A stretch of DNA of 49,655 bases from a virus: positions 1 through 49,655 of IMG/VR virus record IMGVR_UViG_3300045988_137874; one strand, 5' to 3'. The notes beneath the pieces are model-generated. The model worked only from the letters and a program-made list of their open reading frames with translations. It ran no database searches and was not told where the DNA came from. Both the position numbers and the translations under genes were made by a program. Positions 6,701-38,710 of this stretch are shown here, one piece after another (positions within the stretch are counted from its first letter, which is position 1; every line of letters begins with the position of its first letter).

Positions 6701-9700
6701 CCGCTAGTCAGCTCAAGACTCTAAAGAAAGAGTCTAAAGCTGTATCTATTAGTTCGTTCTTTTCTAAATTCAATAAAGTAAAAGAAGAGCTTGGAGCAAA
6801 GTCAGTTAAAGGTACGTTCTATAAAGATAATACTATAGAGCGGGTACTTAAAGATAAAGCTACAGCAAATGCATTTACTACTTTAACAGATATTTCTGAT
6901 GAGTATATAAGCGTTGTGTCTGGTTTAAAACAGTATTTACCTGAGTATCTGCATAGCGCTTTAGAAAGTGTTACGGATGTTAATGTAGATGATTTAGCAT
7001 TACAAACTGCAAAACGTAAAGCATTTCGCAGAGGAGAAGATATAGAAAAAGCAGTAAGCAGTGATATCAAATATATAGGACTCTCTGATTTCCCTAATGG
7101 AATTACAGACCTCATGCAGACTCTAGAAACGCAAGACTTTAAAAAGTTAAGCATACTATTAAACCTAGACGCCAATAGTAATATGGTTACTTTTGTAAAG
7201 CACCTAGATAGTTATATTGAGGAAAGCGTTTCTGAAGCTATAGATACACTACGCCTTATAGATTCTAAAACAGGGGCACCTCTAGCTAATTATCTAGCTG
7301 ACGTAGAGAGCACGCTGATTAAAACTAGAAATGCTGCAAAGTATGAGGACATTACTCTAGACCAGTTCACAACAGTAAGAGCTATTAAAGCTAATGCAGC
7401 ACAACTAGAAGCTACAGCACAAGACATCTATAAACAGAATAAGCATTTATTTAAAACGGGAGATTACTATTTAGAAAGAGTAGACCGCCTAATTAAATCT
7501 GAAATGCTTGATAATATTATAGAGTCTTACAGATTAGCTGATGATTATAAAACTGCCACAACTGTAGAGCAGTTAGCAACTTTTGCTGATGATATAGCTA
7601 AAAAGAAAAAAGCTAATGCACTGCTATCATCTTCATTAGAAGAAGCAGAATCTGCATTATCTCCAGAGCTATATAACATTTATCGTGATGCTTTATTTGA
7701 TGCACGTGATTTAGGACATAGTGCTATGGAGCACCCAGAATTTCTGGCTCCTGATTTTGTAGATCACGTTATAGAACAGCACTACTATCAGTATGCAAAA
7801 GCTAACTACAACATAGATAAAACCATAGGTGACTTGTACTCATTTAGTAAATCAGACCTGTCTAAAAAATATGATATAGACAAAGAGATACTAGATAGAT
7901 TATCTATAGGACATACTGCTGGTATAGACACGTACCGTTCTATCTTAACTAATATAGTACATGACCCTGAAAGTTTTGGTGATTTAATTGAACGTGCTAA
8001 AGCAGGCAGAGATGTATTTATATTTGATACAGAAACACTAGGTCTTAATACTAAACGAAATACTAACCATGTGTTCAGTATGGGTTTGTATAAATTAGAC
8101 CCAGAGCGTTGCAGTTTACTTAAATATGATAAGGAGCTAGAAAGATACACTAGCGAGAGTATCAATGAGTTTATGCGTGCTTTACTAAAAGATGCTGATT
8201 CTGGCAATGGATATAAAGAAATCTTAAATAAGATTCCTAATTACTTGATTGATAATGGGTGGCATCCGGATACGTCTTTCATGGATATTGCTACATTTAA
8301 AAAGATGTATGGTCATGAAGGCTATAGAATAGAAAATGATGTATTCGCTAATAACATTGTAAATACTATGCAGGAGATGCAGGGTACTCCCACATTAGAT
8401 TTACACAATGTTGTATTGTGCGGATTTAACAACCATGGATTTGATAATGTAGTTCTAGCTAATAACTGCCCAGAGATTGCAGCACTATTCAGAGATGTAC
8501 CGCAGAATATAGATATGCTAGTTAACATCAAAGCTAAACACGGTTTAATTATCTCGGATAAAGATAAGAATATAATAGGCAATCTATACAATAGTCTTTT
8601 ATCTGCACTGCATGATACAGATATAGAGAAGTTTAAGTATGCTTATCCAAGTAGACTTATAGATAGCTATGATAGATTTTATAGCACACTTCAGCGTTTA
8701 GGACACAGTGCTACAAGTCTTGACGTTGCTGTTGCACATGGAACAGATGGTACTCAGTATGCCTCTGCTTTAGATACTCTATTTAAAAACACGCCAGAGA
8801 GTATAGACCTTAATCTAGTTGCTAGTGAACTCCGAGAACAGAAGTTCCTACTGAAGTCTATTAACCATCTTAAAGATGATTCTCTAATTGTAGATCACGT
8901 CTTTAATCTGATTCCTAGTAACGAGCGTGCTTGGGAAACAGGTTATCTAGTTATGAAACTAGAGAATCCTAAACTAACTAGAGCAGAGTACGAAGCACTG
9001 TATAAATCTGGGGAACTTGCTAAATACGAAACTACAATTTCTAATTGGTTCCATATCCTAGACAGTAGCCCGGAGATTGATGTGCTTAAATTAACTCCAG
9101 AAGAGTTTATAGCTAAAGCAGATGAGCTTCGTGCAGCAGCAGATGTTATGACTGGTGGACAAACAAGTAACATCATCAGATGGATTAATGGTGTAGCTGA
9201 TGGAGGTTACTCCTATTTCCAAACACTAGCTGTACAGAATAAAGTAAATAAGAACATGCTAGACTGGTTTGGACATGTGATGAATAACTATCACGCTATA
9301 GAGACATACAGACAGCTTACTGCTAATATTCAAAATAATCTCAGACACAACGCTGATGATATATTTGATATAGACAACAGAATGTTACTAACAGGCATAG
9401 CATGGCGTGAGCTTAAAGATTATTGTATTGCACGTCCAGAACTCGCTAGTGCACTCTATATTTTTAATATAGATTTTGATGCACGCACAGTGAGTGAAAA
9501 GTTTGCAATTCTTGAAGAATTAATTATGGGTAAAAAGTACGGTATGCGTGAGACACTGTTTGGTACTTCTGACAGTGCAGTAAGGTTACTTCCGTCTGCA
9601 TACTTTGATTTTTCAGAACACACTGTAGACGTAATAAACTACATATTTAATACACGTAAACATAATAATTATTATCTCTTTGATAAAGAGATAGGTTTCT

Positions 9701-12700
9701 TTACTAGAAATGCAAAGGGAGCTGCGTATGAGATAGCTAGTGAATTAGAACGTGTTAAGTATGATACAGATGCTTTTGAGGAGTTTGCAGAAAGACTCTC
9801 TGGAATAACTGGAGGTGCTTCTGTAGAAAAACACACTATGGCTGTAGCACTACAACCTATTAATAATTTACGTAAGCAAATAGTAAGAATACTTAATAGT
9901 ACGGATGCAAAAAACACAATCACAAACCTTTACTATGATTTACAGCAAATAAAAAATGTTTGGGACGAAGTACATCACACTAGGGTTAAAGCTCTTGTAT
10001 CCGATATGCTTCAGAATGAAGACGCTATCTTAGAGCATCTAATCACGCCTGACTTTAACGGTATGATGTTCCTGCGTTTCTCTCCTGATGATGATAACAT
10101 CAAGCTAGTAGACCAGCTATTATCAGGAACACACCCTAACAGCAAATACCTACAAGTGCGTTATTTAGAAAAAGATGAGGTTGTCGCTGTAACTCTAAAT
10201 AATTTGTGTGACCTAGATGATAAAGCACTACATCTACTCGACACAGGAAAAACCATACAGCGAAATAACATAATAGGAAGGAGTATGCCTACTGAATTAC
10301 TTAATACATTTAAAAAGCAAATAGATAAGCTAGATACTCTAGCACCTGATTCTGTATTAAGACTTTACTATGAGTCATTACAGAATCTAGCAGCATATAG
10401 CAAACACAACTTTAGAGATTACACGCACGGGTTACTCAATGTAGAAAAGATAGACCAGTTACGTGAAGTCTTTGATGTAGTTAATATGATGGATTTAGAT
10501 AAGTTTGGTATGCAGACTATAGATGGATTCGTAAGTGCAGGTTCTTACTTAACACTAGAACCACCTAAGGCAGTTAATGGTGTTAAGTTCTATAACAATC
10601 CATTACTCACAGCCGAGACATTATTAAAACGTAATGCAGAGCAAGCTCTTGATAGTCACACTACTGTTGCTTACTTCTTACGTAATGAAGATCTTAACTC
10701 TTTAAATAAATTTGATTTATCTGATAAAGAGTGGTTTAGAGTATTAGACCAGCTAGAGGATTCCTTTGTTGTTTGTGCTATGGGTACAGACAACAAGAAT
10801 AAAAAGTATTTAAGTAAGTTAGAGTCACAAATTAAAGAAGCTAAAAAGGCTGATGACGTTAAGACACTAGAGAAGTTAGGTGAAGAGTATAGAGCTTATA
10901 ATCCAGTACAGCTTAAATCCTTTGAAATAAAATCTTCGAGGGATTTACAAAGAGCTAAAGAAGCTAATGCAGTTCTAGTCCCTAGAGTTGTGTATGAAAC
11001 ACTCTACGGACACGTGAATAACTTTACACCAACCAATCCTATACTGCGTGGTTACAACAGATATGTAACTATGATGAAAGCGTTTTATATCTCTACGCTA
11101 GGTACAGCCATGCGTAACTACATAGACGAAACCATCAAGACCTATATAGATGTAGGTTGGGAAGGTGTACCTATTGTGCATAGAGCTAGATTTCAGGCTA
11201 TGGCGGACCTATCTGATTATAATCAGATTATGGATGCTATTAAGAAAGACCTCAATACAGGACAACTTATTAAGGGTAAACTTAATTCAGCACAAGCTAG
11301 AGCACACCAGAGCCTAATACAAAAAGGTTTTGCAGATACACCATATTATTTTAATATCCCTGTATCTGATGCACAGAAGTATTATGGTTATTTAGCTGAA
11401 GCTGGAATACTACCTAAACACCTCACTGAACGTATGGATGCAAGTAACTTCTTACGTATGCACGCATTTATGCTAGAGGGTGCATCTGGTGGTACTCAGG
11501 CTGGAGAAATACAAGCACGTGCATTAGCACACTCTATCCCTGAACTAGAGGGTGTTGCTGCTAGAAACAAAGGTGTGTTTGGAACTCTAGGTGCTTTTCT
11601 GAAAATGCCTGATAAAGATTTAGACTCCTATGTATCCATGGGTAACTATCTCTTTAGTAAAGGTGTTTCAGCAGCACTAACTCCAATGGCTTATACAGAG
11701 CAGATTACAAGACTTACACATATGTACACTCTTGAGGAGCTAGGGATAGGTAAAATAGAAGCGTTCTCCAGAATATCTAAAACACATTTCAATTATGATG
11801 TTAAAGATAGAGCAGCAGTTTATGCACAGCTTCTGTTCCCATTCTTTAACTTTACTAAACTAAATATAGACTACTGGATGAACGCATGGACTAAAGACGC
11901 ACACTCTATTCATAACCTACTCAGGCTAAACCAGCAGAACCTTAAAGAGGCTCTGGATGATAACTATGAGCGTACAAGAAATGGACAGTGGGTTGATATG
12001 TCTTATCTTAATCATGCTATGGCAGGTAACCCTAGGATACCTAACCCAGCACAGAATGAGGGACAGGCTGCGTGGTTAAAGTTAAATCCATCATTCTATG
12101 ATGCGTATAACTTCCTACTCGATCCTATGAATCAAGGTATGCAGGATATATTCAGTCCAATTCAGAATGTACTCCAGGATAGACACTTCTTTGATGGTGC
12201 TATTAAAGCAGGTATCTTTAACCAAGGTTATGGTGGAAATGGCTTAATGGATTTCTTACCGCTGATAGGTTCTACTATATTACCAATGCATGAGAATAAA
12301 CTCAGGTATATAGATAAAACCTTTACAGAGTATAGAAACGATACTTTCGCCCAGCTATTAAAATCACCCGGCTCATTTGCACAGCTTCCTACAATCCTTG
12401 CTTTTTCAAAGATAGACTTTGGAGAGGATTATGAGAAGTTTAATAAGTTCTTAAATGCTAATGGTTATGCTTACGATTTCTACACTCGTCAGATAAAACC
12501 AATTAAGGACTGTGTGGCTAGAGATAGTAAAGAGTTATCTATGTATATGTACAAAAAGTATGGGTTAGTATATGACTTCATTACTAAAACATTTGTACCA
12601 GCGTATCTATCCAAGGACCCTGTGACTCGAAATGTAAGTTTTAAAACACCGCATAGTCAAGCACAGTGGTCTGATATACAAGCACTTGCTAAACTCTATC

Positions 12701-24779: not shown

Positions 24780-24807
24780 ATTATGTTCCTTTTATTACTT
24801 TACTGTT

Positions 24808-24882
24808 ATATAGCAGGGCGTGCAAGTGGATCTTTCCGGCTAGTGGGGTGCCTGGAAAGATCCCTTCGCATGAGCGCTATAT
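24808..24882 (-). promoter_or_regulatory. long imperfect stem-loop in the leader of the HTH gene (or an independent small RNA)
   Basis: The outer stem is ATATAGC/GCTATAT (24808-14 / 24876-82). The inner perfect 10-bp stem is GGATCTTTCC/GGAAAGATCC (24828-37 / 24854-63) with a 16-nt loop. Additional TGC/GCA and AAG/CTT pairs lie between them. Confidence 0.45.
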
Positions 24883-24903
24883 TTAGTGAGTGTATCACTT
24901 TGT

Positions 24904-24931
24904 GTTACATTAGCGAAACGCATAATGCTTA
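24904..24931. repeat. left copy of a 28-bp direct repeat bracketing the RT module (GTTACATTAGC-N5-GCATAATGCTTA)
   Basis: 25 of 28 positions are identical to 26521-26548. Both copies are intergenic and lie upstream of minus-strand transcription units. Confidence 0.8.
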
Positions 24932-24949
24932 ACTTAGTAGTCAAAATGG

Positions 24950-25105
24950 CTAAAGTAATATAGCATAAAGTTTTCATAAAAAAAATAGATACTCAAGAGT
25001 GTGTATACATGTGACTAATTTTAGAGAGAATTTATGATGAACATGTTTTGAGTAATTCGTTAGAAATATCTAAAGTAATAACGTAAAAGTTTTGAGTATC
25101 TATTT
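24950..25105 (-). repeat. structured non-coding segment downstream of the RT: 14-bp perfect inverted repeat plus about 25-bp direct repeats
   Basis: The inverted repeat is AAATAGATACTCAA (24983-24996) / TTGAGTATCTATTT (25092-25105). The direct repeats are CTAAAGTAATA..AAAGTTTT at 24950-24974 and 25070-25093. No ORF with an RBS is present. Confidence 0.6.
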
Positions 25106-25112
25106 CGTATTT

Positions 25113-25172
25113 AAAAACAGTAAGTGCTCTCTTATTTGTGTTTATGTGTCTTTTGTTTATAAGCACCTACTG
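25113..25172 (-). terminator. candidate terminator after the RT gene (11-bp stem, large loop, T5 on the minus strand)
   Basis: CAGTAAGTGCT (25118-28) pairs with AGCACCTACTG (25162-72) with one mismatch. The A5 run at 25113-17 gives a T5 tail on the minus-strand RNA. The large loop makes it atypical. Confidence 0.4.
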
Positions 25173-25184
25173 TTCTTAACAAAG

Positions 25185-26304
25185 TTAGTATAGCATATTT
25201 TTCATATACTGCTCTACGTTGGTTTTATATTTTACAGTATATTTATGTAATATGTAATTTGTGTAATCAGGGTCTACAGCCTTTGCGTAAGCTATGTTCC
25301 CCTGTAGTTCCTGTATTTCGGGTACAGTCCATGTCTTCTTTTCAACTATGTTTTCATAACAGAATCTATTTATCTTTGCGTTTAGGATTTTATTGTTTTT
25401 ATGTCCTAATGTAATTCTGTTATCTTTGTTCAGCATGAGTCCTACATTCCAGTTTCTTCCTGCGTTAGACCCGTATCTTGTTTTCTTATTGTTGATTTTA
25501 AATGGAGCATTAAAGTTATTTAGAATGTTTTCTATTTCTTTAATAACGTCTGTCCACTTAAAACTCTTACCTGCACTAATGATAATATCATCAGCGTATC
25601 TTGTGTATGTGAAGAATGTTCCATACTTCTTACCTAGTTCTACGCATAAGTTTGTTATGTCATAGTCTATAGGTACCATGCAAAGATTTGTAAGTGCTGG
25701 ACTAACAGGCGTACCCTGTGGGAGTTTATCGTTTAGGAGGCAAATGTCTAGCATTTTAGAGATGACAGCTCTATCATTTTTGATAAGTGCTCCTATAGGG
25801 TAAACCTGCTCCAGCATGTTTAAGATATATTCTTTGTTGTGTGCTGGGAAGAAGTTGCTAAAGTCTATTTTCAAGAACCATTTAGCTTGCATGTTTTGAT
25901 GTTTCTTTAAACTTTCTATATGGCTTCTTCCTTTGACGTATGCATAAGCAGCGTCATGTGGTAGTATATGCAATTCGTCTTGTAACCAATACGCAAGTGT
26001 TGACTGTATAGTTTTGAGTTCCTGTATTGGGGCATCAATCTCACGCAGTCCTCCAGACTTCTTTGGAATTTTGAACGAAGAGTATAGCTGTAAATTAGAT
26101 TTACTTAAAGACTCCCAACTATTTAAGATGTAGTCTCTAAATCGTGTAGCGTCCTCTGTTAGTGTAAAGTTAGTAGTATCTGGTAGCTCTACTGTTGTAT
26201 ACTCTCGTAGTTTCGTTTTTTCTGGTATAGGTTCGTTTAGAAGTATTTTTCTTAATGTTACTTTTGGGTAGTTTATTTTTTTCTCTGTGAATTGTGTAAT
26301 ACAT
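25185..26304 (-). CDS. reverse transcriptase, retron/Abi-like (non-DGR, no maturase or endonuclease domain); needs a +1 shift in an A7 tract
   Basis: RT motifs read in one frame: FKIPKKSGGLREIDAP (1-2), WFLKIDFSNFF (A/3), LPQGTPVSPALTNL (4), YTRYADDIIIS (YADD, 5), FKINNKKT (6) and RNWNVGLML (retron VTG-like, 7). This frame is open over 26318-25185, but its first canonical start is the TTG at 25973, which lies after motifs 1-2. The ATG at 26304 with a GGAGG RBS is in the frame one nucleotide off. Confidence 0.85.
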
Positions 26305-26520
26305 TTTTGTTTCCTCCATTACTGTGATAGTTTGAGCTCTTTGTCTGTAGCTGCTGACAGGGCGTCGCACTGGACTCGTTTGGTTTGTGCACCTTGGAGT
26401 TTTAATCTTTTGCTGGTTTATCCTGCATTTGGATTATTTGCATCCTTCTGTAGCGTCAGGTTCCTGAGTAATTTTTTCTTTTCTACGTCATCCAGCTCTT
26501 CCGTTTTTCTCTGACAATGC
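26305..26520 (-). ncRNA. candidate structured leader/ncRNA upstream of the RT
   Basis: About 215 nt with no RBS-preceded ORF, lying between the 28-bp repeat and the RT start. It is more GC-rich than other intergenic DNA. It contains an 8-nt direct repeat GCTACAGA (26447-54 and 26344-51 on the plus strand as TCTGTAGC) and several short hairpins. No secure fold could be derived by eye. Confidence 0.3.
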
Positions 26521-26548
26521 GTTACATTAGCTAATAGCATAATGCTTA
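26521..26548. repeat. right copy of the 28-bp direct repeat bracketing the RT module
   Basis: GTTACATTAGC-TAATA-GCATAATGCTTA, compared with GTTACATTAGC-GAAAC-GCATAATGCTTA at 24904-24931. The copies are 1617 bp apart. Confidence 0.8.
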
Positions 26549-26595
26549 TATTTTTTATTAAGAGTATAAAATAACTAATGGATAATATTTTGATT

Positions 26596-27267
26596 TTAGA
26601 ACGAGTCTAAAAACATGTCAAATACGTTAATTGTTGCAAACTTTTTTTGTGCGCCTGTGTTTATATAGTTTATAAAGTTGGCTACCTGCAAGCTCGCTAA
26701 CACGTGCACCGTAGGGGACACTGATAACGACATCCCACAAGCACTTGTTGGTGTTTCAGCTTTTGCTTCTTCATGACTAAAACACATAGAAGCTAGTAAG
26801 CGTTCTTGGTCTTCCTTATTCTTCCAATCCGCAGCTAAAACAGTACCATCTTCCAAACCGAGCCTAATGTCAAAGATTGCTTTTATCTGTTTGTTCTTTG
26901 TAGCTACAGTTGTTATGTCTCTTCTTGTGTCAATGTTATCTACTGCTAGAAAAACATAACCAGCTAGTCTATCTGCTGGTGTGCAACGTTCTTTCTTTGT
27001 GATTCTGCAAGAGTCATTTATTTTAAGTAATCTTGCTTCAAGTGCGTCTGTTTTTAGCATACCTACTTCTGTGTTATCGTAGAGCTGATTTACTACATTG
27101 TGAGACTCAATTGTGTCAAAATCCCATAGTGTAATCTTGTCTATTCCAGAGCGTACTAGCATATCAGCTAGAAATGAACCTGTTGCTCCACAGCCTACAA
27201 TATGTACTTCTGTTTTGCCTAGTTTCTTTGGGTCAAAGTAGTCCTTACTTTTGTTTAGGTTAATCAT
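26596..27267 (-). CDS. ThiF/MoeB/E1-like adenylyltransferase (short, 223 aa)
   Basis: Rossmann motif HIVGCGATGS, then WDFDTIESHNVVNQ (DxD..N..Q), GMLKTDALEARLLKIN, FLAVDNIDTRRDI and a C-terminal SACGMSLSVSPTVHVLASLQVANFI. This is the canonical E1 adenylation-domain motif order. Its ATG overlaps the JAB stop. Confidence 0.85.
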   Translation of the reverse strand: MINLNKSKDYFDPKKLGKTEVHIVGCGATGSFLADMLVRSGIDKITLWDFDTIESHNVVNQLYDNTEVGMLKTDALEARLLKINDSCRITKKERCTPADRLAGYVFLAVDNIDTRRDITTVATKNKQIKAIFDIRLGLEDGTVLAADWKNKEDQERLLASMCFSHEEAKAETPTSACGMSLSVSPTVHVLASLQVANFINYINTGAQKKFATINVFDMFLDSF

Positions 27268-27986
27268 TATTTGTTTCTCCTTCCATAGTAGAAATTACGT
27301 TCATCACCTATAGGATATCCTGCGTCACCGTAGTAATAATCTTCCAGAATGTCATCATCCATTTCTAATAGTGCTGTCGTGTCTTTCCAATTGTTCTTGT
27401 TCTTATTCTTATTCTTATTGTTCTTGTTATAAGTATAAACTGTTGGCTTATACTCTGTGACTTTTTCTTTTGTTTCTCTAATAGCCCACTCTGTTTCTTT
27501 GTTAGCAACTGGGATTATCTGAATATCCTTTGTTTCATACTGTAAGCCAGTTACTGTGTCATAAATGGTGCACCAGATTTCTCTTTTCTTATTTACAATT
27601 AAGAATATGTAGAAGTCACCCTCTTGTAGCTGTGCTAAATGGTCTTCTTGTAATTTGGTGTCTGTAGCACTAGGTGATGTTCCCATAGTTACGTGGGAGT
27701 GTCCGTGTATACGTAGTTTATCGAATACGTTTGAGTTAAGGTCAAGTCTATAACCGTCTAGCCATTCTGCAAACTTAGCTTCGTCTGCTACTATAGATGT
27801 TGCATCTACAGCCTGTGGGTATACTAGAATATCAGTTATTATGAAAGTGTTATCTTTTCTTTCTACTGTTCCGTGCCAGCCAATTTCTTTTGTGTTGTAA
27901 TCTACTAGAGCCCACATTTTGTTATAGGCTGTTTCTGTAAATGTTACAACTGGCTGTACATAATCTTTTTTAAGAATCGGTTTCAT
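27267..27986 (-). CDS. JAB/MPN (JAMM) metalloprotease
   Basis: A complete JAMM signature is present: upstream Glu (KEIGWHG), then HGHSHVTMGTSPSATD, which is HxHx7SxxD. The start is chosen at MKPILKK (27986) because the track start at 28040 overlaps the upstream gene by 71 nt. The C-terminus has a (NK)n low-complexity tract. Confidence 0.85.
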   Translation of the reverse strand: MKPILKKDYVQPVVTFTETAYNKMWALVDYNTKEIGWHGTVERKDNTFIITDILVYPQAVDATSIVADEAKFAEWLDGYRLDLNSNVFDKLRIHGHSHVTMGTSPSATDTKLQEDHLAQLQEGDFYIFLIVNKKREIWCTIYDTVTGLQYETKDIQIIPVANKETEWAIRETKEKVTEYKPTVYTYNKNNKNKNKNKNNWKDTTALLEMDDDILEDYYYGDAGYPIGDERNFYYGRRNK

Positions 27987-29577
27987 TTGTTTCTCTCTCT
28001 GTTTCATACTCTCTACAAAAATCAATATCTTCCCAATCAAAAGTAGGTCCGTCCCATTCTTTATAGTAATCTGTCTGTATAAAGTCTTTTATGATTTGGC
28101 GTAATACACTTCTTGTATATACTCTCTTTTTTTCTACAGTGTCATATAGACCGGATTCTGCATTATTTAGACAATACTTTACGAGTGCCCTTACTACATA
28201 ATCATCAGTTAGATTTATCTGTGTCATAGCATAATTAACTTGTGTTACTGCACCTTCTAAATCATTGTTATCTAGGAACTCTTTGATTGCATATTCGTGA
28301 GAGCCCCAACAATCAAATCTCATTAAGTGGGGGTGGTATAGGTTTTTTGTTTCTGGATTTAGGCGTGTTACTGCTGTGTCTTCTCCTATGTGTGCGTTTA
28401 TAGTCTTTGTTCTATAATTTAAGTCACACTCAGTATACACAGGTACTTCATATTTTTTCTGTATAAAGCACGCCCATAGTAAAGCTAGTTTTGGTAGAGG
28501 CTCTGTATTAAACTCTTCTAGCATTATATCTATTTTGTCAGGATCCCATTCAGTTAAGTGTGTTGCTCCTGCTATATGTACTTTTTGTTCTAGCGTATCA
28601 ACGTCTACTGTTAGATGTGAAAGATATTTACCTGCATAGCTTAATAGATTTTTGACCATCTCTTTTTGTGTTACTATAAGACTGTAATCAGGTCCTTCTT
28701 CTTTAAGTGTTAGTAATCTATCTTTAACTTCAATTATTTTATTTTGATAGTTGGTTATGTCCTCCTGTTTGTCCTTTATACGGTTTGTGTAATCTCTTAT
28801 TGTTGCGTTTGTAGCGAATAATTCTTTTTCATAACTCTTTATTACATCTTCTAGTTCCTTTTGTTTATTGTACCACGTATTAACACAGCGTTCTTTTAGT
28901 GCAAACTCTTCACTTGCACACTTCTCTTTAATACTTGCTATGGTTTTGTTTATATCATTTGTGGTGTGTAATTCTGCGAAGATACTATATGGGTTTGTTC
29001 TTATTTCTTTTGGTAGTCTGCTATAGAAATACATTAGTATCTCTAATACTGCATACTTATTTTTTGCAAAAGAATCTATAGGTGTATCCATAAAGCAGAG
29101 TGTCATTTTGGTACCATTTGGTGTTTTGTATGTTACTGCATATGTTTCTGTGCTATATAGTGTGTGTAAGAGCTGCGTGAGTGTATTATCTATTTCCCAA
29201 TCATTACTATTTGGAATTAATGCTCTTATTCGTTTTATCTGTTCTATGTCTTGTACGCTTGCACATGAAAGGTGTATCTGACTTCTATGTCTATTTGGAT
29301 TTGTGAGCGTGTGTTCTATCATTTGTATAAAATTTGTTGCTGTATTTTTATCTATTAGGATTACATCTAGACTTTTATAACTAAGTAGCGATACGCAGTT
29401 AGTTATAAATGTACGTAATTCTGTAATGTGCTCTATGTTTGGTGTTACGTTGTCTACATAAACTGGAGCATATGAGCTAGGGTTAGGTAGCATTCTGTTT
29501 AATCTTGGAAGTAAATCAAAGATGAACTCTTGATTTTCGCTATTCACATACTCCTTAAAGTTTTTATATTTTGTCAT
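27970..29577 (-). CDS. 535-aa protein with central coiled coil and C-terminal E2(UBC)-like HPH..C motif (putative E2-like conjugating enzyme or adaptor)
   Basis: The C-terminal segment NLYHPHLMRFDCWGSHEY resembles the UBC HPN-x(6-8)-Cys active-site loop. Its position between the Ubl and JAB/E1 genes fits bacterial Ubl operons. The N-terminal 400 aa are unrecognisable. Confidence 0.35.
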   Translation of the reverse strand: MTKYKNFKEYVNSENQEFIFDLLPRLNRMLPNPSSYAPVYVDNVTPNIEHITELRTFITNCVSLLSYKSLDVILIDKNTATNFIQMIEHTLTNPNRHRSQIHLSCASVQDIEQIKRIRALIPNSNDWEIDNTLTQLLHTLYSTETYAVTYKTPNGTKMTLCFMDTPIDSFAKNKYAVLEILMYFYSRLPKEIRTNPYSIFAELHTTNDINKTIASIKEKCASEEFALKERCVNTWYNKQKELEDVIKSYEKELFATNATIRDYTNRIKDKQEDITNYQNKIIEVKDRLLTLKEEGPDYSLIVTQKEMVKNLLSYAGKYLSHLTVDVDTLEQKVHIAGATHLTEWDPDKIDIMLEEFNTEPLPKLALLWACFIQKKYEVPVYTECDLNYRTKTINAHIGEDTAVTRLNPETKNLYHPHLMRFDCWGSHEYAIKEFLDNNDLEGAVTQVNYAMTQINLTDDYVVRALVKYCLNNAESGLYDTVEKKRVYTRSVLRQIIKDFIQTDYYKEWDGPTFDWEDIDFCREYETERETNETDS

Positions 29578-29591
29578 GTTTATATCCTCCT

Positions 29592-29620
29592 AAAAAAAAA
29601 TAGGGGAATGTATCCCCTAT
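29592..29620 (-). terminator. rho-independent terminator between the Ubl gene and the E2-like gene
   Basis: The 8-bp stem ATAGGGGA/TCCCCTAT (29600-07 / 29613-20) has a 5-nt loop. The A9 run at 29592-29600 gives a T9 tail on the minus-strand RNA. Confidence 0.8.
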
Positions 29621-29622
29621 TT

Positions 29623-29859
29623 CTAAAAGTTTCCGTCAGACTTAACTGTCTTTGTTAGTCTGTATTCATCAGCTTCACCTGCAAGATTTAGGATTGTTTC
29701 ATCTAGTTTGTGTTCTGGAACTGCTACTCCGTTTAGGAATGGTAGTCCAACCTCAGGCTGCATACCGTTGTCTAGAAAAGCCTGTCTTACTGTAAGTTCA
29801 CCTGGCTCAATTATTACGCTCTTTCTGTTGTGATTATCTGCTATTAGCATGTTTTTCAT
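29623..29859 (-). CDS. small beta-grasp (ThiS/MoaD/ubiquitin-like) protein candidate, 78 aa
   Basis: Size and pattern (..IIEPGELTVRQAFLDNGM....FLNGVAVPEHKLDETIL..) resemble ThiS/MoaD-type Ubls. The C-terminus is ...KSDGNF, a single Gly 2 residues from the end that JAB trimming could expose. It has a strong AGGAGA RBS. Confidence 0.45.
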   Translation of the reverse strand: MKNMLIADNHNRKSVIIEPGELTVRQAFLDNGMQPEVGLPFLNGVAVPEHKLDETILNLAGEADEYRLTKTVKSDGNF

Positions 29860-29888
29860 GATTTTATCTCCTTATCTTTTCTTTTCAT

Positions 29889-29918
29889 TAAAAAGCTGAA
29901 GAGGCTTTAAGCCTCTTC
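29889..29918 (-). terminator. rho-independent terminator overlapping the stop of the 142-aa gene
   Basis: The 8-bp stem GAAGAGGC/GCCTCTTC (29898-905 / 29911-18) is followed by a T5 run on the minus strand. Confidence 0.7.
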
Positions 29919-30335
29919 GTTTGTTGTTGGTACTGCGTCTGCGGTAACTTCTGCTGTGTCTTCAAACATCTCCAGAGTAGCGTTCACTGCAGCGTCATAC
30001 TTAACAATTGCTTCACCGAACTTAGTTAGTACAGCGTCTAGTTTAGGTAGCATAGGTGCGATAGCTTTTGCCATCTTCTCTTTGCTTACTGGCAGGTCAA
30101 ACGCAATTGTAATGTCTGTACCGTCTTTGCGTGTAGCAATTGTCACTCCGTGTACAATGTCACGTGCTGCGTTGTAGTAGTTACCATCTACAACATTTAC
30201 ACGGAATGTTTCATTTCCGTCTTCGTCCTTCAGTACGGTTGCTTCTCTGTTGTTTCTTGCAACTTCCAGTATGTGCTCTGGATCATACTTTTTTAGTTCA
30301 ATAACTGCTAGGTGCTTTAGTGTTCTAATCTTCAT
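29907..30335 (-). CDS. hypothetical protein (142 aa), monocistronic unit
   Basis: It has an AGGAGG RBS, its own upstream hairpin-motif site and its own terminator. No recognisable motif. Confidence 0.6.
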   Translation of the reverse strand: MKIRTLKHLAVIELKKYDPEHILEVARNNREATVLKDEDGNETFRVNVVDGNYYNAARDIVHGVTIATRKDGTDITIAFDLPVSKEKMAKAIAPMLPKLDAVLTKFGEAIVKYDAAVNATLEMFEDTAEVTADAVPTTNEEA

Positions 30336-35825: not shown

Positions 35826-36221
35826 ATGAAAATCACAATTACAGAAACAAACGGACAGCTAGATTTCCAGCCAGAAGGCGATATTAACTTCGAGGATGGG
35901 ATCACCATGCTTCTAACTGCAGTATTAGGTCAGGCTAACAGCCTATTTGCTGCAGCAGAACAGGATGGAATGGATGCAGAAGGAGTTCAGTGCCTAAAAG
36001 AGGGCGTATATGACCGCTTCAACTACGCATTTGCTAGGGTCCTGGACGAGATTCTACCACCATCTAAAGAGTTTACGGAGAATCTAACTGCAGAAGCTAT
36101 CGTAAGAGCGGAAAATGAGCTGATTCAGGAAGCCTACGACCAGCTTTCGGAGGAAGATAAGGCTACACCTGTAGAATTTCCAAAGGCACCTGTAGAAATG
36201 GTAGAGGAAGAAGATGCTTAA
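35826..36221 (+). CDS. acidic hypothetical protein (small terminase candidate by position only)
   Basis: 131-aa ORF with an AAGGGGG RBS that overlaps the terminase start by 8 nt. It has no recognisable DNA-binding motif. Confidence 0.5.
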   Translation: MKITITETNGQLDFQPEGDINFEDGITMLLTAVLGQANSLFAAAEQDGMDAEGVQCLKEGVYDRFNYAFARVLDEILPPSKEFTENLTAEAIVRAENELIQEAYDQLSEEDKATPVEFPKAPVEMVEEEDA

Positions 36222-36475
36222 AGACATTGACCACTTCCTTGCAGAGGAAGATTTAGGTTTAGACGAGGTAGATCTATTAGCAGAGAGGATGCAGAGGTGT
36301 CCTCGCTGCGGAGCTCCTTGGCAAACTACTTTAGCCTTAAACGAAGGTCCGTCTGAATTTTGGAAAGAGTGTAGTAACCCGAAGTGCAATACGTACCTAA
36401 ATACGTATATGCCTCAGGCACACCAGTTCGAGTTCCACGAGGACGGGCATAGGTTTAAAGCTAACTTCGGAGGGT
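36214..36475 (+). CDS. terL: terminase large subunit, exon 1
   Basis: A zinc-ribbon-like segment CPRCGAPW...CSNPKCNTY is followed by ...HRFKANFGG. The track ORF stops at TAG 36475-77 in the middle of what should be the Walker A loop. The T at 36475 is the predicted last exon nucleotide. Confidence 0.8.
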
Positions 36476-37283
36476 AGAAAATCCGTAGCCCTCGGTAAAT
36501 TCGGCAAAATCGGTGGAAGACTAGAACAGTTAATACCGAGGTAACTAGCACCTTAACAAGTGTTAGCACCGTAACGCATAGGCGTTGAAACTCACAGAGA
36601 ATATAACACGCCCACGAGTGCCGAACTGTTATGTAGCTTGACTCTACAAAACATAATTGTTACACTTAAAATAAAAAAGGCAAAAGCTAAAAGGAGACAA
36701 TTATGTTTAAGGATGTCAAAGGATTTGAAGGACTTTATCAGGTAAATGAAGAAGGTGTAATAGTAAGTACCCCTAGAAATGGGAATGGATATAAGGAACA
36801 CATTATGAGCCATTCTACAGATTCAGACGGGTATGCGGTGTGTAAACTACGTAATAAAGATAAGGTTATTACTAAAAAGATACACAGAGCTGTTGCTGAA
36901 GCCCATCTTCCTAATCCAGATAATAAGCCTCAGATTAACCACAAGGACGGAAATAAAAAGAACAACCACATAAGCAACCTAGAATGGGTGACTGCTTCTG
37001 AAAATATTAGACACGCTAGACAGTTAGGCTTACAGAAGACGCAAGGAGAAAAAGCTGTAAGACAGGTTGATAAACAAACAGGTGCCACACTAGCTGTGTT
37101 TAGGAGTATGAAAGAAGCAGAGAGACAAACAGGCATAGGTTGGACTGGTATTTCCGCAACTGTACGAGGAGTACGTAAAAGTGCAGGTGGTTATTTCTGG
37201 GAACTACATACAGAAAATATATGCTGAACTATATGGGGACATATAGAGCTATAGGATAAAAAGCCTATAGGGTAACAACATTG
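36476..37283 (+). mobile_element. group I intron (808 nt) carrying an HNH homing endonuclease ORF
   Basis: P1: exon GAGGGT (36470-75) pairs with intron GCCCTC (36488-93), with a U-G wobble at the splice site. P10: intron CCGT (36483-86) pairs with the 3' exon ACGG (37284-87). The intron ends in G (37283). Joining gives GGG-TAC-GGT-AGT-GGT-AAG-ACT, which is G-Y-G-S-G-K-T, in frame. Confidence 0.8.
36703..37227 (+). CDS. HNH homing endonuclease (NUMOD4-like N-terminus, HNH_3 core, C-terminal NUMOD1/IENR-like helix)
   Basis: The N-terminus is FEGLYQVNEEGVIVS. The HNH core is INHKDGNKKNNHISNLEWVTASEN. The C-terminus is FRSMKEAERQTGI. It has an AAGGAGA RBS and lies wholly inside the intron. Confidence 0.85.
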   Translation: MFKDVKGFEGLYQVNEEGVIVSTPRNGNGYKEHIMSHSTDSDGYAVCKLRNKDKVITKKIHRAVAEAHLPNPDNKPQINHKDGNKKNNHISNLEWVTASENIRHARQLGLQKTQGEKAVRQVDKQTGATLAVFRSMKEAERQTGIGWTGISATVRGVRKSAGGYFWELHTENIC

Positions 37284-38710
37284 ACGGTAGTGGTAAGACT
37301 TTAACCTCCAGACAGGAGATTTATAAACACATTTTCCTAACTCCAAATGGGACGGGAGTTATTGGAGCTAATGTAAGTTCGCAGTATGAGCAGACAATTA
37401 AGAGGGAAATAGAAGCAGATATCCCTAAAGCGTTTATAGCCAAGGTTAGTACCCAGAAGAACTACTACGAGTTTAAGAACGGGTACAGACTTCTGTTTAG
37501 ACCTTTTGACGATCCAGATAAACTGCGTTCTTATAATGTAGATTTGTTTGTAATTCTGGAGGCATCTGAAGTTAAGCAGGCTAGTTTCACGCAGCTAAAA
37601 ACGAGACTACGTAATAAGGCAGCTATGCTTCAGAAGAAGGATGAGGACGGGTCACTACTCTTTAGAAAAGCCAAGAACGGAGCGAAGATTCCTGTAATTG
37701 AACAGGAGTGGCTTGAGGGGATTATTGAGAGTAATCCGGACGCAGGATGGATTAGAGACGAGGTGCTTTTAAACTCCGAGGAGATATATAAGCACGGGGA
37801 TGTTCTAGATGAGATTCATATAGAGGAGTCTAGGAAAGACCCTATGATTTCTACGCACATAACTGCGACATCAGCTAACGAGTTTCTTCCGGCAGACTTT
37901 ATAGAGCAGAACACAAAGAACAAACCGTTATGGTGGGTTAACAGGTTTATCTACGGGAGCTTTCTTTACGCAGAGGGGCTTGTATATCCAAACTACGCAA
38001 AGTGTTTTGTAGATGACTATGACATACCTCCGCAGTGGAAAAGAGTTATAGCATTTGACTACGGGCTTGTAGACCCATCTGTTTTCTTATTCTGTGCTGT
38101 AGATATGGAGCACAACAAAGCAGTCATCTACAAAGAGGTAAGGATTAATGACAAGAACGTAGAAGAACTGGCTATGCTTTTCCACCATGAGTGTAGGGAC
38201 ATTCCTATGGGAGGTATGTGGATTCCACCTATCATTGACCCGAAGTCTGGACCTAAACGAGATTATGAGAAGAAGTCTTTAGCAGATCACTTCCTAGATT
38301 ACGGAATAGCTTTTCAGCCGGGAACAGTAAACGTTGAGGCTAGAATGTTTAGGCTTAATACTTACATTGAGTCAGGAAGACTGGAGATGTTTAACTCTTG
38401 CGTAGACTTACGAGAGGAGTTATCTAAATACAGATTCCAAAAAGACTCTGGGGCAGAGTTCGGATTTACTAACAAACCTATAGATAAAAACAACCACGCC
38501 ATTAACGCACTTGAGTGGATTACTATGGAGTTACCTAGTGACCCCCAGAATTTAATAAATGGAGTGTACGCTAAAACAGGAAATAGGCTTGACACCGCAA
38601 GTGCAAGTGACGAAGATAAGGTTGCTTTTTATGCACTTACAGATGACGAGGATTTAGAGTATAATACTCTTGTAAAGGAAACACCGTTCGAAATAACGGA
38701 GTGGTATTAA
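37284..38710 (+). CDS. terL: terminase large subunit, exon 2
   Basis: The frame is open upstream of the track start back to 37271. It reads (Y)GSGKTLTSRQE (Walker A) and DLFVILEASE (Walker B). The RNase-H-like nuclease half shows VIAFDYGLVDPSV and NNHAINALEW. Confidence 0.85.

Follow-up and report, generated by a model that had tools for sequence, protein, structure and literature searches.

The closest described relatives of the locus analyzed here are the BilABCD operons (types I and II, bacterial ISG15-like), whose four genes encode, in order, a ubiquitin-like protein (Ubl), an E2, a JAB deubiquitinase (DUB) and an E1 (PMC10557695). These operons belong to bacterial defence islands, their beta-grasp Ubl loses one or more extra C-terminal residues to the JAB enzyme before adenylation, and their E1 is composed of IAD, AAD and CYS domains. 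Three other groups of systems share some of the same parts. In CBASS type II, Cap2 and Cap3 respectively activate a protein C-terminus (Ala or Gly) and, as a JAB enzyme, reverse the reaction. Sulfur-carrier pathways of the ThiS/MoaD-ThiF/MoeB and QbsE/CysO types combine a small beta-grasp protein with a minimal ThiF-fold E1 and, in some such systems, JAMM trimming of a C-terminal tail. Retrons consist of a reverse transcriptase (RT), an msr/msd ncRNA and an effector.

The present locus lies in a window of 49,655 nt, the whole stretch of DNA that was analyzed, and all of its features are on the minus strand. A preliminary description had reported a tightly coupled cassette of four genes (Ubl, E2-like, JAB and E1) in a phage genome, and all four open reading frames and the motifs quoted for them were recovered at the same coordinates. 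The order of these genes, with a 535-aa protein (BIG) in the place of the E2, is that of BilABCD. The JAB stop and the E1 start codon share 1 nt, and the 5′ part of the JAB frame overlaps the end of the BIG gene (27970..29577), which indicates tight coupling. The phage setting also holds, as the window encodes PolA, a primase-MCM protein, SNF2, SSB, dUTPase, TerL, portal, MCP and tail genes, and IMG/VR contigs of 48,981 and 49,871 bp are close relatives of this ~50-kb gut phage.

The conserved unit is larger than these four genes. It spans positions 24790-30335, adding a 142-aa protein (P142) upstream and a structured RNA element and a retron-type RT downstream, such that the module comprises six genes and an RNA in the order P142, Ubl, BIG, JAMM protease, E1, RNA, RT. 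An HMM survey recovered ~150 independent loci on viral or MAG contigs from gut samples, and the protein-coding order is nearly invariant among them. This arrangement, recurring in nearly all of these loci, is far beyond chance. Among the exceptions, no E1 is seen between JAB and RT in locus L012, and a single clade (L016, L017 and L024) is without the RT. Contigs that carry the module fall into at least three size classes (42-66 kb, ~100-150 kb and MAG contigs).

The 78-aa Ubl (29623..29859) belongs to a family of 53 proteins and had been called ThiS/MoaD-like from its sequence. Its AlphaFold model (pLDDT 91.5) has the topology bb-a-bb-a-b, and the top Foldseek matches are all ubiquitin, SUMO or Ubl structures, including the bacterial Bil Ubl 8tyx_A, with a probability of 1.00. 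As modeled, the protein is thus a ubiquitin-type beta-grasp fold, which upholds the Ubl call. Across clades the C-terminus follows the pattern K-x-[D/T/K]-[G/N/C/S]-[G/A/N], followed by a tail of 0-4 residues. We read this as the signature of a processed and activated end because the conserved position precedes zero to four variable residues, and because in several clades the protein simply ends there (..DNA, ..DCA). The residue at this position is Ala in most clades and Asn in the window phage, with no conserved Gly, in contrast to the terminal Gly of Bil Ubls and the Gly-Gly of sulfur carriers. The window protein ends in ..VKSDGNF, and this cross-clade pattern makes processing at ..SDGN|F more likely than the ..SDG|NF cleavage that had been proposed.

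The E1 (26596..27267) is a 223-aa, single-domain ThiF-type adenylase (Pfam ThiF, 1.8e-28) whose relatives by sequence in the PDB include TcdA, UBA5, MccB, MoeB and ThiF. Its nucleotide- and Mg-binding residues are invariant, with GxGxxG, D110 and S175-A176-C177 present in 49/49 homologues. The Pfam score supports the adenylase assignment. In NCBIfam the protein matches ThiF and MoeB models best, and all equivalog scores fall far below their cutoffs. A suggested relationship to PRTRC elements found no support, given a TIGR03736 score of 33.6 bits (cutoff 144.75). The protein has neither a separate CYS domain nor a UFD, and in this it resembles sulfur-carrier E1s that never pass their cargo to an E2.

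The JAMM/MPN+ metalloprotease is 257 aa long as listed (27267..28040), although its listed TTG start is probably to be replaced by an ATG at 27986 or 28007. It carries the exact signature E52...H114-S-H116-x7-S124-x2-D127 (H114-D127 encoded at 27660-27701), and E52, H114, H116, S124 and D127 are present in 72/72 homologues. These residues sustain the JAMM call, alongside weak profile matches to Prok-JAB (E=0.032) and to a PADLOC model of Cap3-type JABs (E=3e-4). The latter is its best match in that defence database, as a CBASS Cap2-type E1-E2 model is for the E1. Despite these similarities, the module differs from CBASS type II in having neither a CD-NTase nor an effector, in encoding E1 and carrier candidate as separate proteins and in possessing a free-standing Ubl.

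BIG (27970..29577) consists of an N-terminal domain, a coiled coil at approximately residues 209-318 (low-confidence model) and a C-terminal domain with the motif P416-H417-x5-C423-x-G425 (28309-28335). H417 and C423 are present in 75/75 family sequences and P416 in 74/75. An exhaustive HMMER search yielded a diverse, unannotated family with 104 representatives at 50% identity, and the PH-x5-C-x-G motif is common to them. The part of the E2 claim that stands is the HPH..C motif, reminiscent of the HPN..C of E2 enzymes, together with the position of the gene between Ubl and JAB, which is that of the E2 in BilABCD. Similarity to the UBC fold did not emerge: sequence and profile searches of Pfam and the PDB returned no match, hhalign against five E2s aligned only the HPH/HPN stretch with 4% probability, and the structure model (pLDDT 40) is unusable. 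Five residues separate His from Cys, compared to the canonical HPN-x7/8-C, and the His precedes the Cys, whereas in BilB Cys138 is followed by His151. BIG is accordingly best described as a candidate E2-like thioester carrier from a new ~500-aa family, its E2 role being unproven and without statistical support.

The unproven fold of BIG, together with the minimal ThiF/MoeB-type E1, leaves some room for a sulfur-carrier pathway, in which the Ubl, once processed by the JAMM protease and activated as an adenylate by the E1 (as for QbsE/QbsD/QbsC or CysO/Mec+), would become a thiocarboxylate that donates sulfur. BIG Cys423 might then help to transfer the sulfur, perhaps in thiolating a nucleic acid (RT product, tRNA or phage DNA). 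A JAMM protein, a tailed beta-grasp protein and a minimal E1 form a known layout of such systems (Iyer et al. 2006, PMC1779556), and both the NCBIfam matches and the PDB relatives of the E1 fit it. However, the module yielded no sulfur-mobilizing enzyme of the rhodanese, cysteine desulfurase or PP-loop ATPase kinds, the Ubl lacks a Gly-Gly end in most clades, the E1 misses every ThiF/MoeB equivalog cutoff widely, and the gene order copies that of a conjugation operon. We consider this pathway distinctly unlikely.

Part of the cassette has a counterpart in Xanthomonas/Erwinia jumbo phages (e.g. PhiXhv-12), where an E1 annotated as ‘thiamine biosynthesis protein’ is 32% identical to the window E1. 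An 892-aa protein carrying HPHM-x11-C-LGSFH is encoded upstream, and the cassette also has a 140-aa protein ending in ..KASGG; homology of either to the window families was not statistically detected. HMMs of the module detected neither JAB nor RT in the jumbo-phage cassette.

The RT gene (25185..26304) was recognized with NCBIfam and PADLOC profiles and encodes a YADD active site. Among NCBIfam models, retron_St85_RT fits it best (E=5.6e-48 for the 262-aa ORF of the window), and its top PADLOC match is RT_II-A (8e-46); five full-length relatives score 145-204 bits against retron_St85_RT, below the curated retron cutoff of 235. In the window the gene is interrupted by an extra A in a homopolymer (26276-26282; A7, compared to A6 in L004 and L005).

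Between E1 and RT lies a non-coding gap of 291 nt (26305..26595) containing a conserved, bulged 9-bp hairpin followed by AACGCATTGTCAGAG (26507-26550). The hairpin is supported by covariation: 97.5% of cells are paired, 6/9 pairs are compensatory and 0/500 shuffles reach the observed score. A covariance model that we built from it (R1) aligns 82 distinct sequences, with 99.3% paired and 7/9 pairs compensatory. R1 matches the E1-RT gap in 41 loci and finds the hairpin ≤450 nt past the RT in 28; in 21 loci the RT is flanked by it on both sides. Hairpins adjacent to the RT are on the coding strand, and matches elsewhere number 12 in 1.1 Mb. In the window, a second copy (24890-24933; 30.4 bits, E=0.0026) is found ~250 nt past the RT stop, ahead of a GC-rich stem, GGATCTTTCC/GGAAAGATCC. 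This region (24790..24933) is conserved in L004, L005 and L021. The ends of the gap carry a 7-nt inverted repeat, TCCATTA/TAATGGA, which is conserved in position and not significant alone. A sigma-70-like sequence, TTGACA-17-TAAAAT (26593..26621), matches the consensus at 11/12 positions and is the best of 26 matches, a count not above that of shuffles; its location at the E1 3′ end is suggestive of a promoter that could start an RNA-RT transcript.

These features recall retrons, which likewise have a same-strand structured RNA directly upstream of an RT, a promoter-like site, terminal inverted repeats and tightly linked accessory genes. The module departs from them in the sub-cutoff RT scores, in a hairpin that is often on both sides of the RT, in accessory genes that form a Ubl cassette and in its residence in virulent-looking phage genomes. 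Ubl cassettes are absent among the retron effectors in the retron literature that we searched, and we did not find the combination of a Ubl cassette, a retron-type RT and a conserved RNA hairpin described. The R1 covariance search gave no matches in the RT-less clade. Because the RT and hairpin accompany the cassette nearly everywhere, and are lost together, the RT is not a chance neighbor. Nevertheless, there is a clade without the RT and the window RT is frameshifted; therefore, the Ubl half and the RT half can exist apart.

The joint retention and loss of RT and hairpin weighs against a purely counter-defensive role, in which the JAMM protease and E1 would undo or saturate Bil or the Cap2/Cap3 enzymes of CBASS type II in the host, with the Ubl for a decoy and the RT an unrelated neighbor. 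Such a role draws on the Cap2- and Cap3-type database matches, but a decoy leaves the invariant His/Cys motif of BIG unexplained, and we regard it as very improbable.

The retron affinity of the RT and the adjoining same-strand RNA bring to mind a phage-borne form of abortive infection or superinfection exclusion. Here the RT-RNA-cDNA complex would act as both sensor and antitoxin, and the effector would be the Ubl machinery, with triggered tagging of competing-phage or host proteins, as with Bil. All characterized retrons, and Bil, are anti-phage systems, and the spread of the module over several contig size classes agrees with such a role. Against it, in phages of the 42-50 kb group the module always lies within the replication module, flanked by the dUTPase and SNF2 helicase genes, rather than in a variable hotspot; the module lacks a toxin-like effector domain, and the window retains an intact cassette with a broken RT. 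A system of this type is in our judgment rather unlikely. It would specify a role for the conjugation cassette that we favor below, and the chemistry of the two is compatible.

P142 (29907..30335) has homologues directly upstream of the Ubl gene in most loci of the HMM survey, and L103 and L104 each carry two copies of the P142-Ubl pair. Neither the window protein nor a 20-sequence profile matched Pfam or the PDB. A consensus scan, which reports pattern matches only, placed terminator-like hairpins with T-runs at the end of P142 (29898..29918) and between the Ubl and BIG genes (29604..29617). Such signals 3′ of P142 and Ubl would be compatible with an abundant substrate and scarce enzymes.

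On balance we lean, with moderate confidence, toward a phage Ubl activation and conjugation cassette in BilABCD order as one half of the module, the other half being the retron-type RT and its structured RNA. The Ubl, made with a short C-terminal tail (Phe in the window phage), would be trimmed by the JAMM protease to expose a small C-terminal residue, and the same enzyme probably also reverses conjugates. The E1 would then adenylate the Ubl C-terminus, and its invariant Cys177 may accept the Ubl as a thioester. Judging from gene position, motif and conservation, the Ubl could pass to the invariant Cys423 of BIG, beside the invariant His417, while the N-terminal domain and coiled coil of BIG might choose the target. 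The Ubl might then be attached to P142, to the RT, or to a protein of the host or of a rival phage. Finally, given their near-universal co-occurrence with the cassette, the RT and RNA, with their putative promoter just after E1, may act in the same pathway, whether by sensing or regulation, as in retrons, or by serving as a substrate.

Compared to bacterial BilABCD, then, this is a phage-borne system with a minimal E1 and a new E2 candidate, and we found no retron link reported for Bil. An RT, an RNA element and a 142-aa gene, three conserved parts additional to those of Bil, accompany the cassette almost everywhere, and this changes what the system is.

The four consecutive minus-strand open reading frames (ORFs) that the preliminary description interpreted as a phage-encoded ubiquitin-like (Ubl) conjugation cassette are all present in the window where that description placed them, each with every motif quoted for it. 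They encode a Ubl protein of 78 aa (29623-29859), a large protein of 535 aa, here called BIG (27970-29577), a JAB protein of 257 aa when counted from a TTG start (27267-28040), and an E1 of 223 aa (26596-27267). The E1 start codon shares one base with the JAB stop codon. The JAB ORF also overlaps the 3′ end of the BIG gene, and an ATG at position 27986 or 28007 is more likely than the TTG to be its start.

Both enzymes that the preliminary description considered secure belong to the expected superfamilies. E1 is composed of one Rossmann-type ThiF domain (residues 14-211), which matches Pfam PF00899 (99.8 bits; cutoff, 28.1) and carries the GxGxxG loop and Mg-binding Asp. Residues involved in nucleotide or Mg binding (G25, G27, G30, D49, D51, K72 and D110) are invariant in 49 of 49 homologues, as is the tripeptide S175-A176-C177 in the same number of distinct homologues. 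C177 is thus a candidate for the catalytic Cys with which conjugating E1s, unlike other members of the superfamily, form a Ubl thioester. Matches of E1 to the equivalog models for ThiF, MoeB, TcdA, PRTRC and Cap2 all fall far under the respective cutoffs, and thus we place the protein outside these named families. The JAB protein carries an exact JAMM signature, E52...H114-S-H116-x7-S124-x2-D127, and this full zinc site is invariant in all 72 homologues. Because its Pfam Prok-JAB score is 14.5 bits, below the 25-bit cutoff, JAMM/MPN+ membership is assigned from the motif together with this and other weak profile matches.

The beta-grasp fold proposed for the 78-aa protein is borne out by structural modeling. 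An AlphaFold model derived from an alignment of the 53 homologues in this family reaches a pLDDT of 91.5 and adopts the bb-a-bb-a-b topology of ubiquitin. Almost all of the top 50 Foldseek matches to this model are ubiquitin, SUMO or Ubl proteins (probability 0.97-1.00, TM ~0.55-0.66), including ISG15 and the bacterial Bil Ubl (8tyx_A). Across clades the C-terminus follows the pattern V-x-K-x-[D/T/K]-[G/N/C/S]-[G/A/N], and zero to four unconserved residues come after it. Examples of these tails are ..KSDGN|F in the window, ..KSDGA|R, ..KMDNA|R, ..KMDNA|LAA, ..KATGG|R and ..KGDGG|VM, and in several clades the protein stops exactly at ..DNA or ..DCA. Such a pattern is what a C-terminus subject to trimming and subsequent activation would show. 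Ubl modifiers typically have a flexible tail ending in Gly-Gly or Gly, whereas here the last residue would usually be Ala, and would be Asn in the window phage. MccB-like chemistry at a conserved Asn was considered for this C-terminus and rejected after additional Ubl clades had been aligned. ORFs matching the Ubl profile are 205-254 aa long at several loci (L047, L128, L140 and L151), and in that of L047 the beta-grasp is not C-terminal, suggesting fusions or N-terminal extensions.

A sulfur carrier pathway is a rival explanation for these genes, and the preliminary description had likened the 78-aa protein to ThiS/MoaD. Such carriers end in Gly-Gly and are linked to a sulfur-transfer enzyme, whereas Gly-Gly is found in only a few Ubl clades, the window protein has Gly-Asn followed by Phe, and the cassette proteins yield no match to rhodanese, desulfurase or PP-loop families.

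BIG has no matches in Pfam, NCBIfam, PHROG or the PDB. Word-indexed homologue searches recover five close relatives only, even after the homologue from the related locus L001 is added to the query. By comparison, an exhaustive HMMER search yields 104 cluster representatives of 435-600 aa, most of which match over the C-terminal third. Among 61-75 diverse members, P416, H417, C423 and G425, together with N455, D458 and V461, are invariant or almost so, giving the consensus hPHhxxaxCaGxH...DxxGA..Q...A..NxN..D..V.

The E2 identity that the preliminary description proposed for BIG is still only putative. An [H/N/Q]-P-H-x5-C-x-G motif resembling the HPN...Cys loop of E2 enzymes is indeed present, a resemblance at the level of the motif, with spacing and context that differ from HPN-x7/8-C. 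Profile methods find no similarity to UBC proteins, whose fold is a-b4-a3, beyond this motif: neither UQ_con nor Prok-E2 appears in Pfam searches at E<=10 with 61 full-length and 39 C-terminal BIG members, and a PDB profile search with the C-terminal domain is empty. In an hhalign comparison with five human E2s, the alignment is confined to 13 columns surrounding HPH/HPN and its probability is 4%. The available AlphaFold model, built from five near-identical sequences, has a pLDDT of 40, and its Foldseek matches are noise. Rather, it is mainly the position of the gene that points to BIG as a candidate E2-like carrier, because the order Ubl-E2-DUB(JAB)-E1 of the BilABCD operon (PMC10557695) places BIG in the E2 slot.

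Among known systems, BilABCD comes nearest to the four cassette genes, with like order and logic, but there are distinctions besides the putative status of the E2 candidate. The Bil E1 is a multidomain protein (IAD, AAD and CYS domains), whereas the window E1 is a single ThiF domain of 223 aa. Likewise, BilABCD is an anti-phage system encoded by the host, whereas the window cassette is carried by a phage genome. In CBASS type II systems, an E2-E1 fusion resides beside a CD-NTase and an effector. The window E1 is a separate protein and no CD-NTase is encoded in the cassette or its immediate neighbours, and therefore the cassette is not CBASS type II. A relation to PRTRC-type cassettes, also raised in the preliminary description, did not hold up. 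A PRTRC cassette is defined by a specific ThiF protein and a ParB-related gene; here the TIGR03736 match reaches 33.6 bits, far from the cutoff of 144.75, and the cassette proteins match no other PRTRC model.

At approximately 50 kb, the window has the appearance of a phage genome that is complete and circularly permuted. Its minus-strand arm (~14-35 kb) includes genes for a RecE-like exonuclease, a family-A DNA polymerase, a primase-MCM helicase, an SSB, an SNF2 helicase and a dUTPase, and its plus-strand arm includes those for a large terminase, a portal, a major head protein, a tail protein, an amidase and a protein of 3391 aa. The ORF for this last protein (3712-13887, plus strand) belongs to the structural arm and is without matches in Pfam or PHROG; by size alone, it may be reminiscent of the virion RNA polymerases of N4-like and crAss-like phages. 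In the region 35826-38710 (plus strand), an HNH endonuclease ORF (36703-37227) resides directly upstream of the large-terminase ORF (37544-38710, 388 aa), which covers just the C-terminal part of terminase profiles. It is possible that this gene is split, or that it is interrupted. None of the window proteins scanned was recognised as an integrase, and searches of the window for Rfam families and tRNAs were empty. Viral contigs of 49,871 and 48,981 bp in IMG/VR are the nearest relatives. A megablast search with the 7-kb region against 50,697 annotated GenBank phage records returned no DNA-level relatives, and tblastn revealed no BIG relatives among annotated phages.

The best phage relative of E1 (39.5% identity) is encoded by MT835544, a 35-kb human-faecal scaffold that carries the cassette genes in identical order along with two extra genes. 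One is an upstream gene for a 141-aa homologue of the 142-aa window protein P142 (29907-30335), and the other is a downstream gene for a 445-aa reverse transcriptase (RT). When six protein HMMs were scanned over 153 fetched loci, the order P142-Ubl-BIG-JAB-E1-RT proved nearly invariant in approximately 150 gut-derived viral and metagenome-assembled genome (MAG) contigs. This nearly invariant order extends to both the 42-66 kb and the 100-150 kb viral contigs of IMG/VR, as well as to 54 of 55 matches from GTDB species genomes. All 54 of these GTDB contigs are binned into gut Clostridia or Bacteroidales MAGs, and the single isolate match in this set, from Allochromatium, has E1 and JAB only. Within the 42-50 kb phage group, the module is always located between the dUTPase and SNF2 helicase genes. 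Two of the module protein families lack annotation.

Departures from this architecture are few. One phage clade (L016, L017 and L024) lacks the RT, locus L012 has no E1 between JAB and RT, and the module of L153 appears degraded. Two loci carry the P142-Ubl pair as a tandem duplicate (L103 4717-6211 and L104 713-2209). In the ~145-kb elements L007-L010, the gene after the RT (15048-15524) encodes an LPD18 domain, of the sort present in the polyvalent proteins of both phages and conjugative elements, and a tyrosine recombinase is encoded ~1.7 kb beyond it.

For the RT half of the module, the closest known system is the retron, and the Ubl cassette occupies the place of the retron effector. The best NCBIfam model for the RT is retron_St85_RT, which five full-length relatives match with 145-204 bits, short of the curated cutoff of 235. 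The top PADLOC models are retron RT types II-A, I-A and III-A. The RT gene of the window (25185-26304, minus strand) is full length and split over two frames, the first of which opens with an ATG at 26304. A homopolymer at 26276-26282 comprises seven A residues here versus six in the close relatives L004 and L005, whose RT genes are intact. The extra A may reflect an error in sequencing the homopolymer, a genuine frameshift or inactivation, or slippage.

Most loci have a gap of 200-400 nt between E1 and RT, and this gap contains a candidate RNA element. Approximately 25-50 nt past the E1 stop codon there is a bulged 9-bp hairpin followed by a AACGCATTGTCAGAG-like sequence. Pairing extends to 97.5% of the alignment cells of this hairpin across nine divergent clades, and six of the nine pairs exhibit compensatory changes. 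None of 500 shuffles reached its covariation score, and controls in which the position was slid drop to 25-41% paired; some selection bias attends this nine-clade test because the sequences were picked after the motif had been seen. A covariance model built from the nine sequences, called R1, was then searched over 1.1 Mb and produced 86 matches, all of which are on the coding strand. Matches fall in the E1-RT gap at 41 loci, within 450 nt after the RT stop at 28 loci, and in both places at 21 loci; only 12 matches lie elsewhere. In the alignment fitted by R1, 99.3% of cells are paired and seven of nine pairs show compensatory changes. The clade lacking the RT has no R1 matches. The RT and its covarying RNA are co-inherited and co-lost.

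The window carries the upstream hairpin copy at 26507-26550 and a second copy at 24890-24933 (region 24790-24933), both on the minus strand. A GC-rich 10-bp stem comes after the second copy, which lies ~250 nt past the stop codon of the RT and is shared with relatives. In retrons, an adjacent structured ncRNA on the same strand is flanked by inverted repeats (a1/a2), and a second hairpin copy after the RT is atypical for them. Single-sequence folding of the E1-RT gap of the window is no better than that of shuffles (z = -0.16), and the RNA signal in this gap is exclusively a comparative one. Terminal inverted repeats of 7-10 nt occur, in a placement reminiscent of retrons, at equivalent positions near the gap ends in several clades, including TCCATTA/TAATGGA in the window, ATCGTGAT/ATCACGAT in L007 and AAATTAAAAC/GTTTTAATTT in the related locus L018. 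An exact inverted-repeat test is not significant for most clades, and because individual repeats mostly lie within shuffle range, we refer to the element as a retron-like ncRNA rather than a proven msr/msd. The hallmark of a retron is msDNA branched from the 2′-OH of a conserved G.

A group of loci denoted L025-L046, consisting of contigs from ~56 to ~114 kb plus short fragments, has an E1-RT spacing of ~13 nt (L025 7484-7498) and no hairpin detectable by R1. These loci exhibit an unexplained gap of ~350 nt between Ubl and a 427-aa BIG homologue (L025 4354-4701), and it may be that in this group the RNA element has relocated or become too divergent to recognise.

A near-consensus sigma-70-like site, TTGACA-17-TAAAAT, resides at the 3′ end of E1 just before the RNA (26593-26621, minus strand). 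Terminator-like hairpins are located on the same strand after P142 (29898-29918) and after Ubl (29604-29617). To judge from these signals, P142 plus Ubl, the enzymes, and the RNA-RT unit may have separate expression levels. The two terminator-like hairpins would fit high expression of P142 and Ubl relative to the enzymes, and this pattern makes P142 a candidate substrate or partner.

Other phages exhibit partially similar arrangements. Jumbo phages of Xanthomonas and Erwinia encode an E1 that is 32% identical to the window E1, and JAB and RT are absent at these loci. Two proteins are encoded beside this E1, one of 892 aa with HPHM-x11-CLGSFH and one of 140 aa that ends in ..KASGG; an example is Xanthomonas phage PhiXhv-12 (L003 799-4675), whose ThiF protein is annotated as ‘thiamine biosynthesis protein’. 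No significant hhalign match links the 892-aa protein to the BIG family despite its similar motif, and homology of the jumbo-phage neighbour proteins to the window families was not statistically detected. It may be that the PhiXhv-12 locus is a related Ubl cassette for which a trimming protease is not required. In crAss-like phages, a JAB-domain protein adjoins a ThiF gene in the replication module; the Steigviridae phage cr111_1 (L002 3658-5663), for example, has a 415-aa protein with weak similarity to Prok-JAB directly upstream of ThiF. No BIG counterpart was detected beside this pair. When cr111_1 proteins were compared by hhalign, a 426-aa protein was unmatched and a ‘metalloprotease’ protein gave a weak, JAB-level match.

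Our proposal for the function of the module begins with trimming of Ubl by the JAMM protease, after which E1 would adenylate the trimmed protein. Ubl would then be handed by thioester to Cys423 of BIG and attached to a target, with the RT and RNA presumably acting in the same pathway. Rival explanations are that the module is a phage-borne exclusion system, or that it serves counter-defence alone. A more novel reading, which we regard as less likely than not, is that the Ubl machinery and the retron-type RT constitute one pathway used by phages during infection, for which there are two versions. It is possible that a cDNA/RNA complex made by the RT gates Ubl conjugation, in which case the module would be a retron with a ubiquitin-like ligase as its effector. 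Equally, Ubl might be attached to the RT or to its nucleic-acid product, yielding a protein-nucleic-acid conjugate.

We found no description of a phage-encoded Ubl/JAB/E1 module like that of the window, nor any link between a retron or RT and ThiF, JAB or Ubl genes, within our incomplete coverage of the full-text literature. The module includes two unannotated protein families and a new RNA element. The module is compact (six genes and an RNA of ~290 nt) and simple to synthesise, and therefore is directly testable. To our knowledge, bacterial Ubl conjugation (Bil, CBASS type II and Bub) and retrons are known so far as weapons of the host against phages, and here both types of weapon are joined in one conserved module carried by phages. 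If this module works as proposed, then phages themselves deploy Ubl conjugation, a new family of E2-like carriers exists, and reverse transcription is tied to protein tagging. Either version of the pathway, if true, would represent an undescribed type of retron and an undescribed use of Ubl proteins, encoded by viruses rather than by their hosts.
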